The translations under genes were made by a program, and so were the position numbers. Shown here piece after piece: positions 4,084 to 61,992 of a stretch of DNA of 64,000 nt. The notes beneath the pieces were generated by a model. It saw only the letters and a list, made by a program, of their open reading frames with translations. It did not search any database and was not told the DNA's origin. The stretch is taken from positions 128,001-192,000 of IMG/VR virus record IMGVR_UViG_3300015615_000629; one strand, written 5' to 3'. Origin of the DNA: a virus. Taxonomy: Duplodnaviria; Heunggongvirae; Uroviricota; Caudoviricetes. Positions within the stretch are counted from its first letter, which is position 1. Each line of letters begins with the position of its first letter.

Positions 4084-4551
4084 TCAGTTCCAATACAACT
4101 CAAAAGGGTCTAATCGGCACGAAAACGGACTAATAGGTAACTGGCCGCATTTTAGTTTGTTAAAACTTTTCGGATTAAGGCTATGAAACTTTGAGTTCCA
4201 AAAAAAGTTTATTGTTTCTAATGCAGTTGTCTCGTAACTGCCATCGTCTGCCATTTTGAATGGAAAACTAAATCCCAGACAAACATATCCATGATTGGAA
4301 ATTTGTGGAAGATCGATAGTTCGCCAAAACAACCAGGGTTTTACAAAAACTTTTAAAGCGAACGGATAAGGGCCGGTATCTCGTTGACCAAATTTTACCA
4401 CAAATAATGTTTTTGGCCATTTTACATAAAAAGACTCTATTTCTCTGCCAGTCCAAGCCAATACAGTCCTATATTGAGCAGGCATTACCAATGATGCAAC
4501 AATCGATCTATGTGGATAACAACCTACTTGTTTAATTTTGACAGTAGCCAT
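4084..4551 (-). CDS. prokaryotic E2-like protein (paralog 1)
   Basis: PAQYRTV, YVKWPKTLF, LPQISNHGYVCLG, FFWNSKF; same motif series as 15079-15852. Confidence 0.7.
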   Translation of the reverse strand: MATVKIKQVGCYPHRSIVASLVMPAQYRTVLAWTGREIESFYVKWPKTLFVVKFGQRDTGPYPFALKVFVKPWLFWRTIDLPQISNHGYVCLGFSFPFKMADDGSYETTALETINFFWNSKFHSLNPKSFNKLKCGQLPISPFSCRLDPFELYWN

Positions 4552-8489: not shown

Positions 8490-9032
8490 TTAGCAATTGT
8501 GGTTTTTCCAATTCTTAGGAGAGACCTTTTTAAGAGAATTGGTAGGATTTAAATATGTCTTCAAACACGCTCCGTAATCGTTTATATCTAACTTGCTTTC
8601 CTTCTTGAAGTTATTACTACGTAGATCATTATATGAATTTATAAATTCTTGTGAATAATATCCAATCCCCTCTGTTCCGTTTGGGTTCCAAAAACGTGAA
8701 TTCCAAAAGTAATCAATTATTATTTGAACATTTTCGTTTATATCCTTGTTAATTTCCCAAGATGGGAAATCTTCTCCCAAACAGACTTCTCGTTTTGCAA
8801 TTTGATTTGGTAAGGCTAATGGATATATGATTGAGTCGCATTGATGGCCTATGTATAATATATAATCCATATAAGGATAAAGAACATTTATAATAAATAT
8901 CATATCTGGCAGATATAATAAGTCTGCCGTATTATCTGTAAGTAGTATAGTCCTTCGATGAGATGGCAGTTCTACCGTAACGTATTTTGTGCGGTTCATC
9001 ATTCCTTCGCCAACAAAACAGTTGATCTTCAT
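8490..9032 (-). CDS. prokaryotic E2-like protein (paralog 2)
   Basis: PSHRRTI, LYLPDMIF, LPNQIAKREVCLG, YFWNSRF; start moved to ATG 9032 to avoid overlapping the divergent gene. Confidence 0.7.
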   Translation of the reverse strand: MKINCFVGEGMMNRTKYVTVELPSHRRTILLTDNTADLLYLPDMIFIINVLYPYMDYILYIGHQCDSIIYPLALPNQIAKREVCLGEDFPSWEINKDINENVQIIIDYFWNSRFWNPNGTEGIGYYSQEFINSYNDLRSNNFKKESKLDINDYGACLKTYLNPTNSLKKVSPKNWKNHNC

Positions 9033-9054
9033 TTTAATAACCTTAAATAAAGGT

Positions 9055-10026
9055 ATGAATGACACACAATTAATTACCGCACTTGCGGCAATCAAGCCGC
9101 TGACAAAACCGCATCATTCTGTCCATCTCTTAAACACGCCGTTGTTTGGAGCCGACAAGAAAGATATTTTATCACATTATGTGAGAATTACAAAATCTTT
9201 TCCTGTTTCGGTTGAATGGCCAAAACAAATTCAAATCGACTTAGGTGCTCCACTTTGTAAAGAGCATGGAGCGTCATTTTGCCTACATACAAATCCTTGG
9301 ATGAAAATGGAGGCAGCAGGAAAACGTGCCGACGATTGGGGAACAGAATTTGTTGCAGATATGACAAATTTTGATAAAAATCTTTCCACACTAAAAACAA
9401 ACATCAGTAAAACAAACATTCCAGTATCTACAATCTTGTTAGATTATGAATTGTGGACATTAAAAACAGATAAGGCTTCGGCAATGGACGCAAAAGCTTC
9501 TGTTATATTTTCCACAATAGCAAAATATTTTCCAGCCGCCGAAACTGTTATTTACGCTCGCGGCGGCGTCAATTACGACAACGCCAAAGGTTGGAGCAAT
9601 AATGAAGCTGGTTTCACCACCTTAAACGAACCTGGGGATTATTTTTCTCCAGACCTTTACTTCTTAACAGAAGTTTACTTAATGGAAGAAGTCTTCCGCC
9701 GTAATTTAAAAGCGGCATCTGAAAAGGGGTACAAAAAAGTTATTCCTTGGATTGCGCTAGGAGGAGCCGGAGTCAGAGACGGCATTAGTATCATTCAATG
9801 GACTACGCCACCGCACGACTATCCATTCGTAAATAGTTATAGAATGGGATTTGATATTAATTATAGTTGGGGTTGGCAATTCCCAGAAAGATTTGGCGAT
9901 TGGTCAAACGTACCTTGTGTTTGTTTCTGGCCGGCAGCGTTTGATCCAATGTGTCCAAATTGGGGCAAACATTTCTTGGCATATTGCCAAGGAGCCAATA
10001 GCGTTAAGATGTCAATTCCTGATTAA
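9055..10026 (+). CDS. hypothetical protein, probably late
   Basis: TAAATA (9044-9049) 5 nt before ATG 9055. Confidence 0.6.
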   Translation: MNDTQLITALAAIKPLTKPHHSVHLLNTPLFGADKKDILSHYVRITKSFPVSVEWPKQIQIDLGAPLCKEHGASFCLHTNPWMKMEAAGKRADDWGTEFVADMTNFDKNLSTLKTNISKTNIPVSTILLDYELWTLKTDKASAMDAKASVIFSTIAKYFPAAETVIYARGGVNYDNAKGWSNNEAGFTTLNEPGDYFSPDLYFLTEVYLMEEVFRRNLKAASEKGYKKVIPWIALGGAGVRDGISIIQWTTPPHDYPFVNSYRMGFDINYSWGWQFPERFGDWSNVPCVCFWPAAFDPMCPNWGKHFLAYCQGANSVKMSIPD

Positions 10027-11642: not shown

Positions 11643-12712
11643 TTATCCAATGTGGGTGTTGCGAAATCCACGAACATGCTTCAAACTTAGACGAATCAGG
11701 ATAAAGACAATCCCAATTACGGCCAAAATGTAAGTAGAAGGTTCGGGGATGAGCATTAAAGGCATTGCGGCACTTCCACTACCATAGTGGTCGGCCCAAA
11801 GGACGTAATCGAGACCATCCACGTTGCCATCGTGGTTGAAATCTCCTTTAGACCAATTTCCAGCACCGCCAGACATGCCGAATCCATCGGCCCAAGCCAC
11901 GTAATCCAAACCATCAACGACGCCGTCCAGATTGGCGTCACCCAAATGTGTATCCAAAACTTTATTCAAGAAATTATTGGCAAGCCACGGATAGCCGTTG
12001 TTGCCAGGACCGTAAAGGTGAACATAACCAGGATTTACACCATCGTCACCATACATTGTTTGCCAATTCGGCACCTGCTGGATATCGTAATTAGTGTCGA
12101 TTAAGTTAAAGCCGTACAAATCGGCTTGCTCTCGAATCCAAGGATTGTAAACGGTATCAACCAAAGTGTTAGCTTGAGCATTAATCGGATTGTTTGGATC
12201 GGCAAGGATTGGCAAAATAGTGCTTACAAAAATCTGCGGATGATTGCCATTTGGAGAAGTTGCCGTAGAAAGGTAATCGTAAACATTAGTCATTACTGAC
12301 TGGTAAGTTGTCCACATTGAGGGATTGTTTACGGATTGATAAGCATCATTGCTACCAATCATCAGGATAACCGCATCCGGATTCACCCCAGTTACACGCG
12401 GCAAATTGTAGTATGTCCAAGGCGGCCCAAAACTGTAAACCGTACCTTCGACAGCATCGAAAGCAAAATTGTGAGAAATTGGAGAAGGAACCCAATGGCC
12501 ATCGGGTGCAAACCCGCCAGAACAGACGATGTGGCACCACCGGAAGCCATCGAATAGGCATTTCCAGTAATGCCTTGGGCGTTCATCGCTAGTTGCAGTT
12601 GAATCGGCCCATAGCCAGTGCTATTGGAATCGCCAATGCCAACAATCTTGAAATTGCCAGCGAAAGCGGGCGAAACAACAAAAAGCAAAAACAGGATTGT
12701 CAACTTCTTCAT
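11643..12712 (-). pseudogene. secreted SGNH hydrolase with dockerin-like repeats and PEP-CTERM, broken by a -1 frameshift near 12512
   Basis: Frame 1 has the signal peptide and GDSNS. The -1 frame has MIGSND, GYVH, two GD(A/F)N.DG.VDGLDY repeats and IPEPST+TM. Confidence 0.75.
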
Positions 12713-12900: not shown

Positions 12901-12934
12901 AAAAAAACCGCTGGGATGTCCTCCCAGCGGTTTT
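12901..12934 (-). terminator. Rho-independent terminator after the Ubl gene
   Basis: AAAACCGCTGGGA/TCCCAGCGGTTTT inverted repeat followed by a T-run on the minus strand. Confidence 0.85.
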
Positions 12935-12959
12935 CACTAACCTCTTAGCTCAGAAACCT

Positions 12960-13304
12960 TTAGGCACCCTTGGTGCCGGCCGGTTTCAAGAATTCGACCT
13001 GTTCAGTGGTCGCGTCAAGCAAGTGGTCATCAGAAACAGCAACGCCCTTGAGGTAGCATTGTGCATCTGCGGCCACGTTGAGCATACCAGCGACAGCCTT
13101 ACGAACTTCGCCGACTGTCTTGCCAGCGACGGCCATTTCGGTTTCGTTGACACCGCACATGATAGGGACCGGCTTACGCTCGGAAATCGCGGTATCGAGT
13201 TTTTCAAGAACTTCGGTAGAACTTGGGTTCTTGTTTTCCAATCCGGTTTCGCACGAACCGGAAGCTACCGTATCGGCAACTTTATTTTGCTGCTTTTGAG
13301 CCAA
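12960..13304 (-). CDS. ubiquitin-like (beta-grasp) protein
   Basis: GKTVGEVR...VEFLKPAGTKGA; GTKG end as in PRTRC protein C/Prok-Ub; GGAGG SD with TTG start; follows ThiF. Confidence 0.8.
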   Translation of the reverse strand: MAQKQQNKVADTVASGSCETGLENKNPSSTEVLEKLDTAISERKPVPIMCGVNETEMAVAGKTVGEVRKAVAGMLNVAADAQCYLKGVAVSDDHLLDATTEQVEFLKPAGTKGA

Positions 13305-13342
13305 GGTTAGTTCCTCCGTAGAGTTTAGTAACTGCTACTTAC

Positions 13343-13370
13343 AATTTAGCACACTTGAAGCGAATGTAAA
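13343..13370 (-). promoter_or_regulatory. sigma70-type promoter for the Ubl gene
   Basis: TTTACA, 16-nt spacer ending TGTGC, TAAATT. Confidence 0.6.
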
Positions 13371-13375
13371 GTAAA

Positions 13376-14068
13376 TTATCCCGCACGCTTCATTGAACGG
13401 GATTTATTTTGCACGACATCGACGTAAACCTCTTCGTAATCAGGGTTTTTGTTCGTCGCTACCGCATAAAATGCGTTTAGCATGACGGCACAGATTGCGA
13501 AGTTTGTGACAACCAATTGTGGAGCGGACTTAACCATCTCCATGCACCCCAACAACTTCAATTCGTTAGGGTGCTTATCCGTTGGAGTATTAATCTCCGG
13601 ATGGACTTCATGCAAAGCACGAGTCAGATTTTTGCCGTTTTTTCGCTGGTGAATCATCACGTTGCCATCAAGCAACTCGTTCCCGCCAGAAATCAAAGTA
13701 ACATCGTTAAGTTGATTGCAATGGTGAGAAACCAGTTTTCTCGTGGCGTGATTGTCCACGCAAAGCAAAACCACATCACCATCCTGAATTAATGTTGAAA
13801 TATTATCAACATCAACATAAACAGGATGATAGGAGATTTCTAGATTTTCGAATTCCTCCTTCAACTCTTCGGCCAGAGCTTGGGCTTTATTGCCCCAACT
13901 GGTGAATCGCTGACGAGTTTTGTTCGAAAAATCGAAATCGTCGCCATCAATCAAGCCCAAAGTAGGGGCTGTAAATTGATGGTCGGCCGAACCCCAATTC
14001 AAAAATTGGCACAGCGGGTAGACCAAGTGTGATCCAATCCCACCCGTTCCAATCATTTTAACACGCAT
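13376..14068 (-). CDS. ThiF/E1-like adenylyltransferase
   Basis: GTGGIGS, IDGD, N..RQ, NKA, CVDN, SGGN; candidate thioester Cys in LGCME..APQL..TN. Confidence 0.9.
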   Translation of the reverse strand: MRVKMIGTGGIGSHLVYPLCQFLNWGSADHQFTAPTLGLIDGDDFDFSNKTRQRFTSWGNKAQALAEELKEEFENLEISYHPVYVDVDNISTLIQDGDVVLLCVDNHATRKLVSHHCNQLNDVTLISGGNELLDGNVMIHQRKNGKNLTRALHEVHPEINTPTDKHPNELKLLGCMEMVKSAPQLVVTNFAICAVMLNAFYAVATNKNPDYEEVYVDVVQNKSRSMKRAG

Positions 14069-14103
14069 TTAAAAAATCCTTTTCTAATCCTTTTCAAGGA
14101 AAA

Positions 14104-15069
14104 TTACTTAAGTGGACCCCATTGACGATCATCATCGTCATCGTCCCACTTTTTACTGCGAGAATTTTTCGCTGCGACGAACGCTCGGCTAACCCGTGGC
14201 ATCCATTCGTCTTCAATTTTGTCTTCCAAATCCGCTTGTTCGTCGGCACTTGGAGCGTCATTCACTCGGAAGTATCGACTCCGATCCCGCCAAGAAGTGG
14301 TGAGCGACCGCCAACCAGAGCGAATTCCTTGAAAGAATCCCATTCCTTCATCTTCGTCGTCGGCTTCGTCTTCAACCTCTTCTTCGTAAATTTCTTCGGC
14401 AGAACCGCCCGTATTGACGACATTCATAACCTCTTCGGGCGGCACTTGTTTTCGATTGCCGTCGATTACAATCGAAGCGGCGGCTGAAAAGTCCGCCCTA
14501 TCAACATGACCAAGGGTAATATGCAAACCATCTTGGTCATGTTCGTCGTGGATATCGACGCCTGAATGGTAGGCAGAGAAATTACAATGTGAATGGATTG
14601 TACCGATTACGATAAATCCATTTCCTTGCAATTCTCCCAATTCTTCATCCATTTTATAATCAACCGAACCACCGGAGACGCTTTGGTTTGGACACCAAAG
14701 AACGTACTCTTTCGTTCGGCGATTATAAAGAATCATGACTTCCGCTTCGGCATGAAATTTATCCCAAACCATTTGAAAAAAGGTGTGGGCCTTATTTACC
14801 AAGGCAGCCGGAAGTATAGGCAACTTGTAGTTGTACTTGTCATCTGGGGATTCTGCCAAGAAATACAAATCATTGGTCGGAACCAAAGCATCCACAACTG
14901 TGGACATTTTTCGCACCTGAGTGCCGTTCTTTGACAGAACGTAATAATTGCCCTTTGTAGGCAAATCCTTGGCGGTGACGAATTTGCATTCGACACCATC
15001 TTGGAATTCTGCGTCGTCATCAACAAGCACGTAAACCGAATGGATGATGTCGGTCATTGAATTCTCCAA
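14104..15069 (-). CDS. JAB/MPN+ metalloprotease (PRTRC protein A-like)
   Basis: EAEV...IGTIHSHCNFSAYHSGVDIHDE matches E..HxH-x7-S-x2-D; acidic C-terminal tail. Confidence 0.85.
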   Translation of the reverse strand: MENSMTDIIHSVYVLVDDDAEFQDGVECKFVTAKDLPTKGNYYVLSKNGTQVRKMSTVVDALVPTNDLYFLAESPDDKYNYKLPILPAALVNKAHTFFQMVWDKFHAEAEVMILYNRRTKEYVLWCPNQSVSGGSVDYKMDEELGELQGNGFIVIGTIHSHCNFSAYHSGVDIHDEHDQDGLHITLGHVDRADFSAAASIVIDGNRKQVPPEEVMNVVNTGGSAEEIYEEEVEDEADDEDEGMGFFQGIRSGWRSLTTSWRDRSRYFRVNDAPSADEQADLEDKIEDEWMPRVSRAFVAAKNSRSKKWDDDDDDRQWGPLK

Positions 15070-15078
15070 AAGTAACGT

Positions 15079-15852
15079 TTAGGCAAGTGGAGACACTATA
15101 GCACGATTTTGGGCAATGTAAACTTCCGTTGGCTTGAAAAAGTTCAAATGCGACTTTTGAATACCATGATGCTCAAGACGCTGATCGGGATGGTAGTAAG
15201 ACGCATATCTAGCCAAACTAGGCCCAGTTTTGGGGTAAAAGCGAGGGTCTAAAATAAAAGATGCATCTGCTCGGGTTTCTTGTTCCCATAATTTTAGACA
15301 AACACTTGTGCTCTCGCAATTATAACAGTTATTAATATTCATACCAAAATTGAACAAAGAAGTTGTGTAATCTCCTGTAAAACGACTATTCCAAAAATCT
15401 TCTAGAATATCAATTAAACAACTACGGTGGTTAATATTCTCGACCATCGTGGGACCGAAACAAATACGCCCACTCTCAAAACGTATGTTTGGCAACCAAC
15501 CAAGGGATATCGAACCCTTATCTCTTATTGATTTGTTAGAAAACCAACAAACACCAGCAGACCGATAGTAGTGGCCAGAATGCGGCATGAACGTAATGGC
15601 CGTTCGATTGAGAGTTATGCAAAAAATAACATATGGAAATGAGAGATAATAACCACCATACGCCGTGTTAATCGTCCTGCATTTTGGTTTCAATTCAAAG
15701 AAGAATAAACAACTGGACTCACTCACTGGAATAATAAATTCGTAATCTTCGACAGACAAGTCATTACAAAAAGCAGGAAATTCAAAATCCGAAATAGAAA
15801 CTTTCAACTTCGTGCAAGATTCCCGCACCTTCTTTTCAAATTCACTCGACAT
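15079..15852 (-). CDS. prokaryotic E2-like protein (operon copy, PRTRC protein B-like)
   Basis: PKCRTI, YLSFPYVIF, LPNIRFESGRICFG (cf. E2 HPN..G.ICL), FWNSRF; directly upstream of JAB-E1-Ubl. Confidence 0.8.
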   Translation of the reverse strand: MSSEFEKKVRESCTKLKVSISDFEFPAFCNDLSVEDYEFIIPVSESSCLFFFELKPKCRTINTAYGGYYLSFPYVIFCITLNRTAITFMPHSGHYYRSAGVCWFSNKSIRDKGSISLGWLPNIRFESGRICFGPTMVENINHRSCLIDILEDFWNSRFTGDYTTSLFNFGMNINNCYNCESTSVCLKLWEQETRADASFILDPRFYPKTGPSLARYASYYHPDQRLEHHGIQKSHLNFFKPTEVYIAQNRAIVSPLA

Positions 15853-16339
15853 CTATATTAAACCTTTTCCTAATCGAGTGTATTGCTCTTTGACCACGTT
15901 GCATGGCAGCAACTCGTGAGATTCCCAGCCCATCGCCTATTTCCTGCCAGGAAAGCCCATTTAGATAATGCTGAGTTAGTATTTTTCTGTTAAGAATATC
16001 AGCATCTGTGTCGTCTGGTGATTCTGTTAAGAAATAAGATAAATCTAGGAAATCTAGTCCTGTTTCACTCCAGGTTGGTTCAAAATCTAATGATTCTGTT
16101 CGTCTTAAACGACGAGATTTTCTGCCAGAAATAATCCTATTCCGCATACAGCGAAAAGCGAATTTTGAAAAAAATGGAGTTTTGGTCTCGTCAAAAGATT
16201 TAGCCGCATCCAACAACCCATCTACAGCATCAGAATATTCCGGAGTATCTTCGACTGGACCGCTAGGAACGTAAGAACGACATATCTTACGTGCAAGCCC
16301 AAGATGTTCCGCAGCGTTAATTTTCTTTAGGGAAATCAT
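15842..16339 (-). CDS. sigma70-family sigma factor
   Basis: Region 2 (GLLDAAKSFD...FSKFAFRCMRNRI) and region 4 HTH (LSWQEIGDGLGISR). Confidence 0.8.
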   Translation of the reverse strand: MISLKKINAAEHLGLARKICRSYVPSGPVEDTPEYSDAVDGLLDAAKSFDETKTPFFSKFAFRCMRNRIISGRKSRRLRRTESLDFEPTWSETGLDFLDLSYFLTESPDDTDADILNRKILTQHYLNGLSWQEIGDGLGISRVAAMQRGQRAIHSIRKRFNIDVE

Positions 16340-16844
16340 TCGGCACAACCAAAACTTCGTATACGTCCTGTCCTATGGACAACCTGTTTGTATCAGCATC
16401 CCCTTCGATTATATCGATAAGCCGAGATAAAACTTTTTCAGAAGATATTAGATCGTTGAATTCCTTGGAGATTTTGTTACGACGAGAGAAAAACATCAAA
16501 AATCCTTACCGTAAATAACGCATTCACCTTTCCACTTTTCTGCTTTATCGTCAGATAATTGCGGAATCGGCATTAAAGATTCTAAGTCAAAGAAAAAAGC
16601 CAAGGAATTGGTACATTTTTTCCAAGTTGGCGGAAACATTCTGCCACTGTTTCTGGGATGCTTGTGTAATTTAAACTTAATCCCTAACTCCGTAAGAATC
16701 TTTTCCGCTTTGACAGTCAGAGCGGCTTTGCTAGAAGGGATTTTATTGCTAATAACCAATTCGGGCGGGTCATCGTCATCGAAACAAATATACCAATCCT
16801 CCCCATAAAGAATAGGGTTTTTGTAAAATAAACCATCAGTGGCT

Positions 16845-20754: not shown

Positions 20755-21282
20755 TCATTTATTCACCCATTTTCTGGGTCTAATCTGCTGCGAATCGGGT
20801 GGAATTCTAAAAACCTCGATGCAAGCAATTAATTCCTTTACATCTTTTGTTCTTTGCCACTTTGTTACATCATAACCACCAAACGCACTACTCCAAAAGT
20901 ATGAGATGGCATTTTCTATTAATGGTTTCAAATAACGTTCATTCCGTCCGTGACGAGGATAAAATCTTGTCATGCATATATTGCCGTGCGGAATCTCGGA
21001 CGATCCATGAACCGCTTTTGAGTTGTCGCCCTTCATAAAACCAAAACTAAGGCCATGAAAATGAAATCCATCTGGATTTCGATAAGCATCTATTTTAAAA
21101 CAAGTTCTAGGAAATAGAAGGTACTTACTAAGAGTATTAGTGCCGTCATCATCGGCGAATCTTACTGTGCGATATCGACTAGGAAATGTTATAAAAACCT
21201 CTACACCAAGATCGACGTTTCGGTCGTGATAACGTCGATAGACTTCTGTGTATCTTTCAAAGATTTTCATCGTCTTGCCCAT
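20755..21282 (-). CDS. prokaryotic E2-like protein (paralog 4)
   Basis: PSRYRTV, YLLFPRTCF, HGNICM, YFWSSAF; tandem duplicate of the next gene. Confidence 0.65.
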   Translation of the reverse strand: MGKTMKIFERYTEVYRRYHDRNVDLGVEVFITFPSRYRTVRFADDDGTNTLSKYLLFPRTCFKIDAYRNPDGFHFHGLSFGFMKGDNSKAVHGSSEIPHGNICMTRFYPRHGRNERYLKPLIENAISYFWSSAFGGYDVTKWQRTKDVKELIACIEVFRIPPDSQQIRPRKWVNK

Positions 21283-21815
21283 TTTCTTGGAAAAATTTGT
21301 TTTGAATCGGGAGGAATTCTACCAATTATAGATGCGGCCCGCCCTTCGACAGTACAGAAGTAGTCATTAACATCCTCAATTTTTTTCCACAAACCGATGT
21401 AATGAGAAACAAAAAACGAACTATTCCAAAAATAATTGACTACATCCGATACAAGTGTGTCGGCGTAACGAATGGATGGAAGCCTCAAATAATTTTCCAT
21501 ACAAACAGAACCATCCCATCCAATATTTGGCAGATACCTGTGATAATAGATGATTTTTGAATTCTCATTCTTAAGGATTCCAAACTTTAAAGATTTGAAT
21601 TTAAAACCGGTTGACGTTCGAAAAACATCGATACCAAAACAGGTTGCCGGAAACAACAAATATTCATTGGTAACTCGATGACGATAATCACCCTCAAATC
21701 TAATAGTTCGATATCTGCTAGGTTCTGTAACTACAATCGTAGCAGCCAGATCAGCATCTTTTGAAAGATGCCGCTTAACTTCCCTAAGTAATCTCTTTTT
21801 CGAGAAAATTTTCAC
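21267..21815 (-). CDS. prokaryotic E2-like protein (paralog 5)
   Basis: PSRYRTI, YLLFPATCF, LPNIGWDGSVCM, YFWNSSF. Confidence 0.72.
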   Translation of the reverse strand: MKIFSKKRLLREVKRHLSKDADLAATIVVTEPSRYRTIRFEGDYRHRVTNEYLLFPATCFGIDVFRTSTGFKFKSLKFGILKNENSKIIYYHRYLPNIGWDGSVCMENYLRLPSIRYADTLVSDVVNYFWNSSFFVSHYIGLWKKIEDVNDYFCTVEGRAASIIGRIPPDSKQIFPRKWARR

Positions 21816-45555: not shown

Positions 45556-46068
45556 TTAGAGTAGTGCCGGAGAAAAGATAATTTGACTGCTTTTTGGAAA
45601 TAACAAACGTTTTGGTACAGAAGGACAAGGCATGGTAAATCGCATTTCCAATCTTTGCTTCTCGAAAGCAGAATTCAAATAAGCAGCCGAGTCTCTGTTT
45701 TGAAGATAACTGCTACAAAGAGAAAAATAGGTCTGCCAGAAACAACCCGCCAAATAAACGAACGTATCCTCATCACACCTCCAATCGTCTTTTACCAATC
45801 CGGTACAAACATTAAAACCATGTCCGAAGATATTGGTAAGCCCAGAGGGATAGATTAACCCATCATCCCCATAGAGTCCGAAATAGAAATTCAAATCACG
45901 ATCAAACATGAAAAAATGCTCAGGAACATAAACTGACTTCGGGCCAGGGGTTAAGTGTTCATATTGATCGATCCAAGTGGACTTATGATGTTTGTATTTA
46001 AATAGCAATGTCCTCTTAGCAGGAGGACATACACCAATGTATCCCAAACTATTTCGGATTATTTCCAT
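45556..46068 (-). CDS. prokaryotic E2-like protein (paralog 6)
   Basis: PPAKRTL, VYVPEHFF, LTNIFGHGFNVCTG, CFWQTYF. Confidence 0.65.
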   Translation of the reverse strand: MEIIRNSLGYIGVCPPAKRTLLFKYKHHKSTWIDQYEHLTPGPKSVYVPEHFFMFDRDLNFYFGLYGDDGLIYPSGLTNIFGHGFNVCTGLVKDDWRCDEDTFVYLAGCFWQTYFSLCSSYLQNRDSAAYLNSAFEKQRLEMRFTMPCPSVPKRLLFPKSSQIIFSPALL

Positions 46069-46552
46069 TACAGAGCCTTTCGACTTCTTCGTATGTAATT
46101 TCGTCGTAATCACAAATAGGACTTCGGCAGTTATCGAAATATTTTACAATGGTTCCATCCTGCAAGCCCCACGAAAACTTAGTATAAGCCCCTGGTAGTG
46201 AGTCAATGGTAAACGCAGTAGTCCAAAATAAACTAGCAATACCATTAAATACATGTTCCGGCGTAGTTCGAGAAACGAAACGTTTTCCGAGACAGATAGT
46301 ACCGTTGAGTGACACATAATTCGGCAGAGCTGGAAGAAAATAAGAGTCGTTTTCTTTTGCTAAAGCAACCAAATAAGCATGAAAATCCGAGCCATGCCAA
46401 GATTCAGCATAAAACCCAGGAAAGAAATGCATCTCTGGGAATTGAAGGTAGTGCGTAGACGACCCATATTTAATCGATCTTTTCGATGCTTTTTGAACGA
46501 TATGAGCCATAAGAAAGTTCAAATCGCCCATAGTGGTTTTGTAAAATCTCAT
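46049..46552 (-). CDS. prokaryotic E2-like protein (paralog 7)
   Basis: ASKRSI, YLQFPEMHF, LPNYVSLNGTICLG, LFWTTAF. Confidence 0.7.
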   Translation of the reverse strand: MRFYKTTMGDLNFLMAHIVQKASKRSIKYGSSTHYLQFPEMHFFPGFYAESWHGSDFHAYLVALAKENDSYFLPALPNYVSLNGTICLGKRFVSRTTPEHVFNGIASLFWTTAFTIDSLPGAYTKFSWGLQDGTIVKYFDNCRSPICDYDEITYEEVERLCNGNNPK

Positions 46553-49107: not shown

Positions 49108-51579
49108 TCATTGCATTAAAATTAATCGATAATCTTGATTCTTAGGTGGAATCTTATGGAATCTAGGATAAGTATCAAAAGTAAAGTTGTTAAATCCACC
49201 TTCTGGGCGTCTTACACGGATTTGCAGATTATTGCCATGTTTGTAATCTTCATTCCATTCACCAAATTCTTCCTTAAATCTCTCGAAATCACTACTCCAA
49301 ACCGTCACTCTTTCCCGCCTAAAATTCTCATCCTCAACGGTTAATTGATAACAATGTCCTTTTCCACTCTTAAATTCTCTTCTCTCTGGCTTTTCAATAA
49401 CCCTTACTTGAACCGGCATAACAGAGATGTCTTCTTCTGTGTCGAATTGACCGAAACCCATGCCAGGAGTATAGTTTAAACTTGTTTCTAATGGACTGTT
49501 CCAACTAAATCCATAGTATTTAACATCCGCATAGTGCTGTTCTAATGTATACATTTCATGTAATTCAGCAAGAATTTCTCCAGTTGGAGTGAAATCACTT
49601 AAAGAAATTAAATTTTCTATATTTTCCAGTTTTTCCTTTTGGTCGGCCAACGTTTTGTGCCATCGTCTTATTAAAGCAGATAATTTCTTATCATCTGTCT
49701 CTTCTAATATAGTAAATGTTTCTTCTGTCGCGTCCGGAATAAATTCCTTTAATTTTTCTACCATGTTTTCTCTGGACTTAGCAAACGATTTCAATCTAGT
49801 CTTTATTTTCTTCTTATGGTCGCTCCAATAGGCATAATATTCCCATAATACGACTCTAGGGGCTTCTTGGAATAGGTTTAAACCAATAATTGGCTTCATA
49901 ATAGTAGCACTTGGCTCAACTCTTTCTAGGAAGTCTTCGAAATTTTCGAAGGGTTGCTTGCTGGCGATATCGGCAGCGACTTCATATCCAATACCTTTAA
50001 TATTGGATATTCCCATATAGATTTTATCGTTTTTAATTGAGAACAAAGATTCTGAAATGTTTAGGTCAACAGGATTGATATCAATCCCCATTCGTCTGGC
50101 TTCAAGACGATATTCCCTAATCTTCTCTTCTTTACTTTCACACATAAGAATCGCTGTAAAGAACTCAAGCGGATAATGTGCTTTAAGATAAAGAAGCCTC
50201 GAAGAGGTAATAGTATAGCCGACAGAATGTGCTCTATTGAACCCATAACCACTGAAGGCATCGATTTGTTCCCATAAATTCTGAATTTCTTCGAGAGAAC
50301 AACCAAGCACCTTTTGCCCGTTCTCTATGAACATCTTCTGATAGGATTTAAATATCTTCTCTTTTTTCTTGGAAATGGCCTTTCTTACGATTTCACAATC
50401 TTTTAACGGAATCTTTCCAACTACGTGAAGAATACACATTATCTGTTCTTGAAATACCATCACTGAATAGGTTTTTCCAAGAATAGGCTTCAACACAGGA
50501 TGAATAACATATTCTTCTAACCCTTTCTTTCTTCTAGTATAAGCATCGTGCATCTTCATCTTCATAGGGCCGGGACGATAAAGAGCAGTATAAGCAACTA
50601 AATCTTCAAAATTATCGACACCACCTGCTTTAACCAGATTCCTAATTCCTTCGCTGTCAAATTGAAATACACATCTTAATTCCCCATTGTTAGCCATTTC
50701 CAAGGCTTTAGGATCATTCAAATAAGTCTCATCCGACCAGTCTTTTTGTCCAGGCAAAGCACAGATTTTTTCAAGCCCATGTCTTTCTTTAACTAACTTC
50801 GATGCATAGGCAATTTGTAGCAAATTGATAATGCTTAGAACGTCAAACTTAATCAGTCCTACAGGCTGCAAATCTGTGGCGTGCAACCCTTCTACCCATG
50901 CCGAAACACGATTTCCTTCACCATCAATGATGATTGGAACAAATTCATCCAAATCCACCGAAGAAATAATTAATCCACCGGCATGCTTTCCCTTCTGTTT
51001 ATTCCTATGCAATAGTCGTTTGGCTGCGTCTGTTACCTCGGGATTGTTTACACAATATTGTCTAAACTCGTCGCTCATCTTAAGAGCTTCGTCCCAGGTC
51101 AAGACGTTTCCATCGTCGTCTTTGATACCCATTTTGGTTGAGAATTCATAGATTTCAGACTTGGGTTTGCTGAAAACCTTAGCCATATCCAATAAAGAAT
51201 TCTTAATGCCAAAAGTGGCATAATTTCCAATTAAACAAACTCGGTTCTCACCGAATTGTTCCTTGGCCCATTGTTCCCTGATATACTTTTGAACGACGGG
51301 AAGATAATCTACGTCAATATCAGGGAAGTCGCCGTAAGTGTATTCCGGCTCTTTGCTTATATCGAAATCTTCTACAATTCCCAACAACCAGGGAACAAGA
51401 AGATTATTGACATTAGAAGGGTACTTCGTACCCTGTTGGTAGAGGTCTATAAAGTAATCGTACTCGTTCTGATCATCAATATCTTGAAGTTCAAGTTCTA
51501 ATCTTTTACTATATTCTTCACCTAAAGCCTTTATTTGCAAAGACTTACGGCAAAGTTCAACTAGTTTTTCCTTCATCAT
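49108..51579 (-). CDS. dnaE: DNA polymerase III alpha, C-terminal (catalytic) half
   Basis: FPDIDVD, HAGG, KFDVL, VFQF, ALYRPGPM, FQEQ, YGFNRAH, LKAHYP, HhH and OB regions; no PHP domain. Confidence 0.92.
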   Translation of the reverse strand: MMKEKLVELCRKSLQIKALGEEYSKRLELELQDIDDQNEYDYFIDLYQQGTKYPSNVNNLLVPWLLGIVEDFDISKEPEYTYGDFPDIDVDYLPVVQKYIREQWAKEQFGENRVCLIGNYATFGIKNSLLDMAKVFSKPKSEIYEFSTKMGIKDDDGNVLTWDEALKMSDEFRQYCVNNPEVTDAAKRLLHRNKQKGKHAGGLIISSVDLDEFVPIIIDGEGNRVSAWVEGLHATDLQPVGLIKFDVLSIINLLQIAYASKLVKERHGLEKICALPGQKDWSDETYLNDPKALEMANNGELRCVFQFDSEGIRNLVKAGGVDNFEDLVAYTALYRPGPMKMKMHDAYTRRKKGLEEYVIHPVLKPILGKTYSVMVFQEQIMCILHVVGKIPLKDCEIVRKAISKKKEKIFKSYQKMFIENGQKVLGCSLEEIQNLWEQIDAFSGYGFNRAHSVGYTITSSRLLYLKAHYPLEFFTAILMCESKEEKIREYRLEARRMGIDINPVDLNISESLFSIKNDKIYMGISNIKGIGYEVAADIASKQPFENFEDFLERVEPSATIMKPIIGLNLFQEAPRVVLWEYYAYWSDHKKKIKTRLKSFAKSRENMVEKLKEFIPDATEETFTILEETDDKKLSALIRRWHKTLADQKEKLENIENLISLSDFTPTGEILAELHEMYTLEQHYADVKYYGFSWNSPLETSLNYTPGMGFGQFDTEEDISVMPVQVRVIEKPERREFKSGKGHCYQLTVEDENFRRERVTVWSSDFERFKEEFGEWNEDYKHGNNLQIRVRRPEGGFNNFTFDTYPRFHKIPPKNQDYRLILMQ

Positions 51580-59397: not shown

Positions 59398-61992
59398 TCA
59401 TGCTGGTAATACTATTTCCGGAAATCTCAATTTCATTTGTTTGCCGCCCCGAGCAGGACTAAGAAACCTTGAGAATAGCAGATCATGCTTGATTGGGTCA
59501 ACATCAGTTATTCCAAGACAATAGTTGACAAGGGAGCCCCCGCCCGAATTATGAACCAAGAACGAATTTGTCAAATAATTACTATTATTTTCCACCGATA
59601 TATCATAAACACGTTTCACTCCTTTAATTTTAGATTTTTTCCTAACGCGGACAAGCAAACCACCTTCTATATTCCTGTAAACGTTTTTTACGTGTGATTG
59701 TCGAGAAGATATTTCTTCAACATTTGGTACATCTATAACAGAGCCAACAGAACGAGTTCCGCTTCTTTTGTCGATTCTGTCATAGTGGGCATTTGAAGCA
59801 GGGATATTTAATTGCCAACACAAAAATCTAACTTGATCAGCCAACATTTTAGAACTAGTAGAAAAACCAGCACGAGTTGCACGAACTGTTCCGTCGCTAA
59901 GGCGATATCCTTTAAGAAAACATTTCTTACGCTCATCTGTATCCTTAAAAACAAAAGCCGGCACATGTTTTGTTTGTGAAGTATATTTATAGTGATGAAA
60001 AAATTCCTTAAACATTTTTTTAAGATAGAAGTTATAAGCATGAATTTGAATTAATTTCTTTTCTTTATGTTTTGTTTCTTTAAAATAAATTTCTAGTTCT
60101 TTTAGTTTTTTCCTTAAAAGAACTTTTCCAAAAATATCGGTTTCAGAATTGAAACAAAATCCAACACCATGATCGACCGTATTTAGTCCCGACCGCTTGT
60201 CTATTCTATCCGAACGCAACCACCCATCGCCGGCAAAAAGGCCCATTAAAATCATCCAATGGTCATCTAAATCAAAAAATCTATTTATTTTAGATACAAG
60301 TTTCCTGCGCTTTGTAATTGGATTAATTGTTTCATGATAACAGTAATCACTATCAAACCAAAATCTTCCTCCATCACAGTATTTGGATAAATCAATTATT
60401 CGATCCATTGGGTTTACTTCAATTTCAGGTCTGGGCACAAAAAGCCAATCGCCAACTTCAACATCGTTAGCCGCCAGCCACTGCAAATTGCCAGTTGGCT
60501 CTTTTATTATCTTTCTAGATTTCTTTGTACTCTCTGCCCATGTCTCGTAACTATCTGGCCGTATGACCTTTTCGCACAAAACAAGATGATCCTTTGTTAA
60601 AGTTATTCCTTTGTTATCTCCATAATTAACTTTTAAGTTAACTAAAGATTCATTTTCTATACTATAACAATGAGTTTTAGTAACTTCCTGAACGCTGCCA
60701 TCGTGAGTTATTACATTATCCCCAACTTGAACATCTTTGATGTATTTTGTAGTTCCATCAGACATCACGATTGGAGAATTTCCACCAAGACAACCTCTTG
60801 CCGCTCCCACGGCGTCATTTCCATCGCCCCAACCTAACAACTTTGGACATATCGCACGAGCCGAATCTGTCATCATCTGCTGTAACAAAAAGTAGGAAGC
60901 AAATCCTTTTCTGGTAATTAGGCTATATTCTTCTAGAACCCTGTCTAAGTATTCTCTCGTTCTGGGGAGTTGTCTTTCCTTAAATCCACGCATTATCTTA
61001 TCTTTAAAAACATCTCTTTCATCGGGAATCTGTGGGAGTTTGATGGTTCTATCAATTTTCACATTTGCGGCTTTTCGACATACTTCTACAGTGGTTTGTT
61101 TGGCTATATTAAACAAATCTAAATCTATTGTGTCTTGATAATCAGATAACCACTTAGCATTCAACTCTTCTTCGGATTTAAGCCAAAGATTTTGATCTTG
61201 CAGTTCGAATAAATCAGCAGTTGCGTCATCGTCTAGTTTCTGTTGAATTTCTGCTAATGTTTTTCTCGTTTGAATCATTAACATCAACCGCTGCATGTAG
61301 CTGTCTTCAGGGTTGGCGTAATGACAATCCTGAGTCAGAATTATTGGCAAACCATACCTTTGGTGTGCTTTTATGATAAAAGCATCATAGGGCTTTTGTT
61401 TGACGAAATCCAGCAGCATTATTTCCAGATAGAAATTTTCTCCAAACATTGCCATGTATTTTTCCAACATGGTAAATGCTTCGTCCTCACCTCCTCTGTC
61501 AAATGCTTGACCTATCTCGCTGTTGTAGCAGCAACTTGTGAAGATAATCCCTTCTTTATAAGCCATCAATTGCTGGTGATTGACTCTTGGGTGTCTGTAG
61601 AATCCTTTAGTCCAAGCCAAAGAACTTAATTTAACTAGATTGCTATAACCTTTCTCGTTGTAGGCTATAGCGAGAAGATGATAAGATTTTTTGAATCTCT
61701 TATATTCTTCGGCAGACATTTCTTTCGTGTAATCAGAACTCGTTTCACCTGTTTTTAATTCGGGTTGGAGGGGATTAACGTATAGTTCGATCCCAAATAT
61801 TGAAGATAATTTATGTTCTTCACAGCAACGTATCTGTTCCGGAATGGCGGCCATCATTCCGTGGTCGGTAATACACAAATACTGCTGATTTATCTTTTTG
61901 GCACGTTGGCAATACTCTTCCACCTGCCCGTAGCCGTCTAATAAAGAAAATGACGAGTGTAAATGAAGATGCTCAAAACCAACAATTTTCAT
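59398..61992 (-). CDS. dnaE: DNA polymerase III alpha, N-terminal (PHP) half with intein
   Basis: HLHLHSSFSLLDG, ITDHG, GIELY, DCHY; GAARG[intein]SGGGSLVNYCLGITDVDP..LLFSRFL; stops before PDIDVD. Confidence 0.92.
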   Translation of the reverse strand: MKIVGFEHLHLHSSFSLLDGYGQVEEYCQRAKKINQQYLCITDHGMMAAIPEQIRCCEEHKLSSIFGIELYVNPLQPELKTGETSSDYTKEMSAEEYKRFKKSYHLLAIAYNEKGYSNLVKLSSLAWTKGFYRHPRVNHQQLMAYKEGIIFTSCCYNSEIGQAFDRGGEDEAFTMLEKYMAMFGENFYLEIMLLDFVKQKPYDAFIIKAHQRYGLPIILTQDCHYANPEDSYMQRLMLMIQTRKTLAEIQQKLDDDATADLFELQDQNLWLKSEEELNAKWLSDYQDTIDLDLFNIAKQTTVEVCRKAANVKIDRTIKLPQIPDERDVFKDKIMRGFKERQLPRTREYLDRVLEEYSLITRKGFASYFLLQQMMTDSARAICPKLLGWGDGNDAVGAARGCLGGNSPIVMSDGTTKYIKDVQVGDNVITHDGSVQEVTKTHCYSIENESLVNLKVNYGDNKGITLTKDHLVLCEKVIRPDSYETWAESTKKSRKIIKEPTGNLQWLAANDVEVGDWLFVPRPEIEVNPMDRIIDLSKYCDGGRFWFDSDYCYHETINPITKRRKLVSKINRFFDLDDHWMILMGLFAGDGWLRSDRIDKRSGLNTVDHGVGFCFNSETDIFGKVLLRKKLKELEIYFKETKHKEKKLIQIHAYNFYLKKMFKEFFHHYKYTSQTKHVPAFVFKDTDERKKCFLKGYRLSDGTVRATRAGFSTSSKMLADQVRFLCWQLNIPASNAHYDRIDKRSGTRSVGSVIDVPNVEEISSRQSHVKNVYRNIEGGLLVRVRKKSKIKGVKRVYDISVENNSNYLTNSFLVHNSGGGSLVNYCLGITDVDPIKHDLLFSRFLSPARGGKQMKLRFPEIVLPA
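59548..60792 (-). mobile_element. intein with LAGLIDADG homing endonuclease (415 aa)
   Basis: Starts CLGGNSPI, ends VYDISVE...FLVHN with +1 Ser; LMGLFAGDG and FLKGYRLSDG motifs; inserted at the conserved RG|S site. Confidence 0.92.

Follow-up and report, generated by a model that had tools for sequence, protein, structure and literature searches.

Ubiquitin-like conjugation in prokaryotes has so far been studied either as a weapon against phages, as with Cap2 of the cyclic oligonucleotide-based anti-phage signalling system (CBASS) and with Bil, or as an unexplained cassette of mobile DNA, as with PRTRC and Bub. The PRTRC cassette (ParB-related, ThiF-related cassette; NCBIfam TIGR03734-03741) is carried by plasmids and by integrative and conjugative elements and, judging by gene content, probably corresponds to operon class 6d of Iyer, Burroughs and Aravind 2006 (PMC1779556), which comprises a JAB peptidase with an N-terminal domain, a small ubiquitin-like protein (Ubl) whose last residue is Gly, and an E2 that carries a Cys and lacks the His of the H-P-N motif (PMC1779556). 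The DNA analysed here, called the window, is a stretch of 64,000 nucleotides, namely bases 128,001-192,000 within the single 572,167-bp contig (genome label G000) of the IMG/VR virus record IMGVR_UViG_3300015615_000629. Here, I describe an operon of this window (15852..12960) that is read, with a probability of roughly 70%, as a phage-encoded ubiquitin-like conjugation cascade, the 68 other E2-like proteins of the same genome being included among its carriers.

The operon consists of four tightly packed open reading frames (ORFs) on the minus strand, in the order E2-like protein, JAB, E1 and Ubl. An earlier note on this DNA, made from the sequence alone, had proposed four such co-oriented, adjacent genes; every one of the ORFs was recovered at the coordinates given below, together with all the motifs it had quoted (LPNI..SGRIC, HSH-x7-S-x2-D and GTKG-A) and the candidate thioester Cys of the E1 (Cys175). 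Since the residues named in these motifs are invariant or nearly so across dozens of homologues, the motifs are not chance occurrences. All four gene assignments of the note survive, and its suggestion that the virus may have a protein-tagging pathway of its own is supported. It had also placed the module in a large phage genome, and the contig is indeed a genuine, complete tailed phage: the IMG/VR record has direct terminal repeats, with a 141-bp overlap between the contig ends, a CheckV completeness of 100% and 40 tRNA genes, and encodes a large terminase (TerL, phrog_2 match at 4.6e-42), an NAD-dependent ligase and a split, intein-bearing DnaE.

The E1 (13376..14068, minus strand; 230 aa) is a minimal, single-domain protein of the ThiF type. 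It matches the Pfam family ThiF (PF00899) at 2.4e-18 and 66.6 bits, past the gathering cut-off of 28.1 bits, and PRTRC_ThiF at 7.9e-12 over practically its full length (residues 2-227 of 230); its closest solved relatives are Uba4 and MoeB. Three adenylation motifs, G-x-G-G-x-G (7-12), D-G-D..E.S-N..R-Q (41-53) and V-D-N-H..R (104-110), are conserved when 73 homologues taken from viral loci are aligned, and by these features the protein belongs with the ThiF/MoeB/E1 adenylating enzymes. The same alignment keeps Cys175, directly after an H-P-E-I motif, in 73 out of 73 sequences. In E1 enzymes the thioester is formed by the cysteine of the crossover loop, and the position of Cys175 after H-P-E-I suggests that it is this residue. 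A single-protein scan of viral contigs with the E1 gave no match. A second, different pair of E1 and JAB genes lies outside the window, at G000:279882-282501 (L088:3883-6502); one gene encodes a 212-aa ThiF-like protein (Uba4, TcdA and MoeB at ~5e-12), the other a protein of 161 aa that bears the MPN+ motif H-T-H-P-H...S..N-R-D. Small Cys-rich ORFs separate the two genes, and the pair adjoins an array of E2-like genes at 283-305 kb.

The JAB/MPN+ (JAMM) zinc peptidase (14104..15069, minus strand) is 321 aa long, or 317 aa should translation begin at the ATG at 15057, with a PRTRC_A-like N-terminal domain and an acidic C-terminal tail. Its match to Prok-JAB (1.2e-4, 22.4 bits) does not reach the cut-off of 25 bits; that to PRTRC_A (2.8e-9) covers residues 32-205, the extra N-terminal domain included. 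All 40 sequences of alignment A1 share E108, H159, S160, H161, S169 and D172, and the JAMM zinc site, E...H-x-H-x7-S-x2-D, is complete. A database search returned 120 JAB homologues, many of them on contigs of 100-630 kb. Among GenBank phages there were only four JAB matches, all weak, three of which fall in the Vibrio phages D69, D181 and D148 (~187 kb), where a distant JAB (profile E 1e-29) is followed by an E1 (9e-10) and the pair is annotated as hypothetical (D69 locus L087, OZ195729.1:171077-179586). Upstream of the pair in D69, a 263-aa ORF ends in T-G-T-K-G plus five residues. These three phages are possible culturable relatives of the present system and might serve as a model.

The Ubl (12960..13304, minus strand; 114 aa, TTG start) ends in P-A-G-T-K-G113 followed by one Ala and is named by none of the protein family libraries scanned (Pfam, NCBIfam, PHROGs). 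Its AlphaFold model has a disordered stretch of 45 residues at the N-terminus and a beta-grasp core at 46-106 of the order beta-beta-alpha-beta-beta-beta, with a predicted local distance difference test (pLDDT) score of ~86-95 per 10-residue block. Foldseek places Caldiarchaeum ubiquitin, ISG15, MoaD, SUMO and ubiquitin in the top rows, all at probability 1.0, with ~70 residues aligned at 2-3 Å. At the family level, the Pfam families ThiS and TGS are matched by 10 and 8 of 39 members, respectively, and MoaD by one. K112 and G113 are invariant in the 39 sequences (alignment A3), for which the C-terminal consensus reads L-E-F-(L/I)-K-P-A-G-x-K-G; most members end at the Gly and the rest carry one or two further residues, such as the Ala of the window's Ubl. 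A K-G end with zero to two extra residues is the mark of a C-terminally activated tag, some of whose pro-forms need trimming, and the model, which has a clear ubiquitin fold, places the protein among the beta-grasp modifiers with an exposed or exposable C-terminal Gly. In type II Bil, a one-residue Ala tail of the Ubl is trimmed by the JAB partner (Chambers et al., PMC10557695). The defence models of PADLOC yielded, for the Ubl, a single weak match to BrxC, at chance level. One related locus (L055:8817-9776) encodes a tandem di-Ubl of 319 aa with two full Ubl domains, each at a profile E of ~1e-40, reminiscent of polyubiquitin and of ISG15-type precursors.

By sequence, the E2-like protein (15079..15852, minus strand; 257 aa) is the weakest of the four assignments. 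Its signature, L120-P-N-I-x7-C131, reads L-P-N-I...S-G-R-I-C-F-G, with Cys131 as the candidate catalytic residue. Word-indexed and full HMMER searches with it returned the protein itself plus two weak relatives only, a single-protein scan of viral contigs gave no match, and PHROGs holds no family for it, nor for the JAB, the Ubl or the E2-like paralogs discussed below. A family was assembled from the related loci, by iterating a profile over the ORFs of 80 of them: a domain of ~195 aa resembling the window's protein occurs, in essentially every locus, in the gene just upstream of JAB. In an alignment of 66 sequences (A2), P73 and C131 are invariant, and N122, G133, W154, R59 and others nearly so; the core reads (L)P-N-I-x5-8-(I/V)-C-x-G, then a helix with F-W. 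The sole Pfam family to emerge is Prok-E2_D, which 40 of the 66 members match at E < 0.01 (best 1.1e-7); PRTRC_B of NCBIfam is matched by 10 of them, at 3.3e-5 or weaker, and not by the window's own protein.

The AlphaFold model of the E2-like protein, whose core has a pLDDT above 85, predicts a beta-meander, an extended P-N loop, the Cys and a long helix. When it was compared with 48,161 chains by VIA-align, the top 27 rows were all E2 enzymes of the UBC fold, at Z 4.5-5.7, with 120-136 residues aligned at a root-mean-square deviation (rmsd) of ~4 Å; UEV, RWD, bacterial CdnG-E2 and Cap2 occupy lower rows. Foldseek ranks Cdc34, UBE2S, Rad6 and UbcH7 first in the PDB, at a weak E of ~0.013; its PDB rows lie above E 1e-3, and weight was put on how consistently E2s rank first and on VIA-align. 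A comparison with viral models gave uncharacterised Caudovirales proteins as its best matches (E 8e-8 to 1e-5) and a giant-virus E2 at rank 5 (weak, E 7e-3). The model thus supports a UBC fold for 15079..15852, as the earlier note had expected, and stops short of proving it because the Z-scores, 5.7 at best, are modest.

The module recurs beyond this genome. When IMG/VR was scanned with the JAB alignment, 98 relatives were found, and 80 loci from among them were retained. In all 80 the E1 directly follows JAB, and the Ubl follows the E1 in 76 by the first search and in 78 after iteration, so that, with the E2-like domain encoded upstream of JAB, the order E2 domain, JAB, E1, Ubl recurs across these 80 viral loci. 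Two forms of the module exist. In the commoner, long form, a protein of ~850 aa has the E2 domain at its N-terminal end, and the Ubl (~155 aa) carries an N-terminal Rho_N/SAP-like domain; the C-terminal extension of ~600 aa of these E2 proteins found no lead in the ESM Atlas, Pfam or PHROGs. The short form, represented by the window and its nearest relatives (L002-L010 and L030), has a stand-alone E2-like protein of 257-550 aa, often in two or three tandem copies, and a bare Ubl of ~100-135 aa. Misfiling of bacterial DNA as the origin of the long-form 'viral' contigs was considered and rejected: five large related records, three long-form and two short-form, were checked, and four encode a large terminase, hence the related records are taken as phages. 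In 68 long-form loci a gene resembling RNA polymerase beta' of the bacterial type lies ~2 kb downstream of the Ubl (in L012:11699-14368 it encodes 889 aa and matches RpoC at 3e-109), and a Rad50/SbcC-like ATPase gene is found upstream in long-form relatives.

The most striking and testable feature of the genome, which the earlier note had overlooked, is the expansion of its E2 family to 69 members. A search of the whole genome with the E2-domain profile found 56 ORFs and a six-frame search with alignment A2 found 39 E2-like paralogs at E <=1e-3; two more profile rounds converge at 69 proteins, that is, 68 besides the E2 of the module. They measure 132-257 aa (median 166), take up ~6.2% of the genome and are encoded in 16 clusters; the region 537-555 kb has the largest, with 22 genes, followed by that of 11 genes at 290-305 kb. 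Overlaps of 4-50 nt between neighbours are frequent in these tandem arrays, which argues that the paralogs are real genes. They are old duplicates, with a median identity to the best paralog of 34% and a maximum of 52%. Nevertheless the catalytic-column Cys is present in 68 of the 69 proteins and the Arg of P..R-T in all of them, while more than 90% retain both the F-P proline and the F-W in the helix (alignment A4), giving a shared signature of P..R-T, F-P, (L)P-N...C-x-G and F-W.

The paralog profile aligns with the cross-phage E2 profile at a probability of 99.3% (E 1.9e-20). Prok-E2_D, matched by 9 of 50 paralogs, is the sole recurrent Pfam family; in the ESM Atlas one paralog falls among Uroviricota clusters carrying Prok-E2_D and, by structure, weakly near a UQ_con cluster (TM 0.48). 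A HMMER search with the paralog profile retrieved little beyond proteins of the same contig. The same kind of profile searches found in the 572-kb genome one JAB, one Ubl and one cognate E1, plus one unrelated ThiF-like gene. Related huge phages have far fewer E2-like genes: one complete genome of 527 kb contains 10-11 of them, a record of 340 kb 6-7 and the others 1-2. The window holds seven copies, all on the minus strand, including the E2 of the module. The other six are a 155-aa protein with the conserved Cys and the F-W helix (4084..4551), a 201-aa protein with L-P-N...V-C-L-G (8490..9095), a 175-aa protein found by profile search (20755..21282), a 182-aa protein with L-P-N-I...V-C-M (21267..21815), a 185-aa protein recruited in the second profile round (45556..46113) and a 167-aa protein with L-P-N...I-C-L-G (46049..46552).

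A cascade would then run as follows. JAB would remove Ala114 after Gly113 from the Ubl precursor; the E1, probably a homodimer like ThiF and MoeB, would adenylate Gly113 with ATP and take the Ubl onto Cys175 as a thioester; and the Ubl would be passed to Cys131 of the E2-like protein, a residue that lies nine positions past P-N, as does the Cys of the eukaryotic H-P-N...C arrangement. The E2 might next move the Ubl to a lysine of the target without a separate E3, as has been proposed for Bil, and JAB would probably reverse the conjugates as well. The single E1 may charge the 68 further E2-like proteins too, each acting as an alternative selector of targets; since the nucleophile is invariant in them and the remainder has diverged, they are best explained as alternative carriers. 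Such paralogs could enable a broad repertoire of proteins of the host or of rival elements to be tagged during infection. The biochemical cascade itself is well supported, and the charging of the paralogs by a shared E1 and the identity of the targets are inference.

Several points weigh against this reading. The window's E2-like protein taken singly reaches Prok-E2_D (PF14460) at E 0.095 and 12.9 bits only, the gathering threshold being 25; structural support for it is modest (Z <=5.7, rmsd ~4 Å, Foldseek E ~0.01), and the family profile retrieved no solved E2 from the PDB sequences. The family has Leu in place of the His of H-P-N and also lacks a conserved downstream His, such as is described for class 6d E2s (Iyer et al. 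2006, PMC1779556), and its conserved Cys could serve other chemistry. The 230-aa E1 has no UFD-like domain by which it could dock 69 E2s. Finally, no target, E3 or proteasome-like partner was identified, and the support is wholly computational.

Among described systems, PRTRC stands closest. In both, separate genes encode a small E1 (~230-245 aa), a JAB extended by a further domain at its N-terminus, an E2-like protein that bears a Cys and a small Ubl whose C-terminus has a Gly; moreover, the only curated families matched are PRTRC_ThiF and PRTRC_A, joined by PRTRC_B and Prok-E2_D for members of the E2 family. They differ in that neither the E1 (45 bits; TIGR03736 cut-off 144.75) nor the JAB (36.8 bits; TIGR03735 cut-off 101.8) reaches the PRTRC cut-off, and the window's Ubl has no NCBIfam match, PRTRC_C included. 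PRTRC_C and PRTRC_E found nothing in the complete genome, while the Bacteroides thetaiotaomicron control was positive; PRTRC_D had no match either, though its control likewise matched no genome. Besides, the phage module's E2 is without the conserved downstream His and expanded to 69 copies, the carrier is a tailed phage instead of a plasmid or an integrative and conjugative element, and ParB is not adjacent: the sole ParB_N match of the genome, G000:76026-76193, lies ~65 kb away, in agreement with the earlier note, which had seen no ParB nearby. That note had also matched the module to the PRTRC/Prok-E2 class. Homology to PRTRC_A, PRTRC_ThiF, PRTRC_B and Prok-E2_D bears out the kinship and not the membership, all scores being below the cut-offs and PRTRC_C and PRTRC_E absent; the module is best regarded, by sequence, as a sister of PRTRC that is carried by phages and has diverged from it.

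The module is not Bil, CBASS Cap2/Cap3 or Bub. Bil (BilABCD, types I and II) likewise comprises Ubl, E2, JAB and E1 without an E3, uses Cys thioester chemistry and, in places, has a short tail past the conserved Ubl Gly that JAB trims. Bil, however, is encoded by bacteria against phages, and BilD is a two-domain E1, with inactive and active adenylation domains (IAD-AAD) and an inserted CYS domain, whereas the phage E1 is a single domain of 230 aa; because of this, and because no PADLOC defence model matched the E2-like protein or the JAB (the presence of Bil models in PADLOC 2.0 being unverified), Bil is set aside. With Cap2/Cap3 of CBASS type II the module shares a ThiF-type adenylation domain, to which the PADLOC 'E1-E2' models match weakly (7.8e-8, the phage E1 adenylation domain only), a UBC-like fold and the partnership with a JAB. 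In Cap2, E1 and E2 are fused and a CD-NTase is conjugated without a Ubl, whereas the phage has separate genes and a dedicated Ubl; the absence of a fusion, and of any CD-NTase among the module's neighbour genes, separates the two. Bub (6E/DUF6527) resembles it in joining Ubl, E1, E2 and peptidase on mobile DNA. The E1 and E2 of Bub lack a catalytic Cys and form Tyr/Ser oxyesters, with DUF6527 as a serine protease, whereas both phage Cys are invariant, and for this reason Bub is likewise set aside.

Eukaryotic UBC E2s have in common with the phage protein the UBC fold and a P-N followed 8-9 residues on by Cys and then by a long helix; the H-P-N..C spacing of UbcH5 is comparable. The diversification of the E2 also recalls eukaryotic UBC families and the multigene families of large eukaryotic viruses. 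They are unlike in that the phage protein has no sequence match to solved E2s, Leu instead of the H-P-N His and extra beta-strands, and no RING or HECT partner was found for the phage module. In the open-access literature that was searched, neither a phage-encoded cascade of this family nor a phage E2 multigene family is described; a preprint on Asgard viruses reports E1-like genes only.

The operon is preceded by a sigma-70-family gene (15842..16348, minus strand; 168 aa, regions 2 and 4 only; Sigma70_r4 6.4e-7, Sigma70_r2 3.5e-6), whose end overlaps the start of the E2-like gene by 11 nt; in four related huge phages (L002, L003, L006 and L030) a sigma homologue precedes the module by 1-3 kb. 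The gene is taken as syntenic context. A strong ribosome-binding site, GGAGG (13313..13317, minus strand), read from the sequence, stands 8 nt 5' of the TTG start of the Ubl. The operon ends in a strong intrinsic terminator 3' of the Ubl gene (12901..12935, minus strand; stem CCGCUGGG / CCCAGCGG, then U7), with a folding energy of -24.9 kcal/mol and a z-score of -5.8, none of 200 shuffles being equally stable; a consensus scan for promoters and terminators performed no better than shuffles and overlooked this real terminator. Directly downstream of it lies a GDSL lipase/dockerin/PEP-CTERM gene (11643-12712, minus strand) that is split in two frames, 12712..12392 with a signal peptide and the G-D-S block and 12404..11643, which starts with the G-x-N-D block. 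Between these ORFs there is an overlap of 13 nt and a +1 shift; the gene could be decaying, or the split could come from a frameshift or from an error in sequencing. DnaE (DNA polymerase III alpha) is likewise split into two genes ~8 kb apart (49108-51579 and 59398-61992, minus strand), with a Hint/LAGLIDADG intein in the upstream part. ARAGORN called suppressor-type tRNAs (anticodons CTA and TCA) at G000:30802-30894 and 286239-286310; an alternative genetic code, considered on their account, was rejected as every gene discussed is open under table 11.

The module might serve ends other than the marking of host proteins. With the same chemistry, it could be defence cargo for superinfection exclusion, tagging the structural proteins of rival phages, with the paralogs covering many rivals. 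Bil does conjugate a Ubl to phage tail proteins without an E3 (PMC11601596, PMC10557695), and large diverged paralog arrays are typical of arms-race genes. Yet no PADLOC defence model matched the E2, JAB or Ubl (with the proviso on Bil models given above), the module forms part of core synteny, by ligase and sigma genes, in a clade of huge phages and not of a variable island, and its E1 is not built as IAD-AAD-CYS like BilD; such a use is thus unlikely. Somewhat less probable still is counter-defence, in which JAB strips conjugates of host Bil or CBASS and the E2-like proteins, instead of being enzymes of a phage pathway, trap the E1~Ubl or Cap2 intermediates of the host as decoys or sinks. 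JAB peptidases, namely Cap3 and BilC, do reverse conjugates in bacterial immunity, and the expansion of E2 alone, with E1, JAB and Ubl in single copy, would fit a family of decoys; but decoys need neither an activatable K-G Ubl nor a Cys-bearing E1, both of which are kept in all 80 loci, and they could lose the Cys that 68 of the 69 proteins retain.

Alternatively, the Ubl may be attached to the phage's own proteins, so as to regulate transcription or assembly. The sigma-70-family gene abutting the module, with synteny in four relatives, and the beta'-like gene and the Rho_N-tagged Ubl of the long-form phages are weak hints of transcription targets, and lambdoid phages use a pair of Ubl and JAB in tail assembly (Iyer 2006). 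The synteny of sigma and ligase may however be no more than gene order at the level of the clade, the 572-kb genome has no RNA polymerase beta' gene and the window's Ubl no Rho_N domain, and a few self-targets would hardly seem to call for 69 E2 paralogs, so that self-tagging is about as doubtful as superinfection exclusion. Least probable by far is a sulfur carrier like ThiS, MoaD or TtuB, in which the Ubl would be thiocarboxylated for cofactor or tRNA thiolation and the 'E2' would be unrelated. The best solved relatives of the E1, Uba4 and MoeB, and the matches of Ubl family members to ThiS and MoaD speak for it; it was rejected since the E1 lacks a rhodanese domain, neither MoaE nor ThiG was found in the complete genome, and the Ubl is strictly linked, in 80 loci, to a Cys-bearing UBC-fold protein and a JAB foreign to sulfur pathways.

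To sum up, the conjugation cascade remains the preferred reading, and the complete kit of ubiquitin-like conjugation is here found on the side of the virus and conserved on at least 80 uncultured phage contigs. In its boldest and only tentative form, the phage would run a ubiquitin-like system as broad as those of eukaryotes, in which one tag, one E1 and one deconjugase would serve ~69 E2 thioester carriers, each with its own target. The system is experimentally compact, with four small proteins and clear Cys and Gly mutants. If the single E1 does charge the paralogs, 'many E2s, one E1' would have been invented here independently, and phages would have a new class of machinery for host takeover or counter-defence; if true, it would also be the first diversification of E2s as a strategy of specificity outside eukaryotes, by which the virus could re-programme or disarm many host proteins, in defence, transcription and proteolysis, by covalent tagging.

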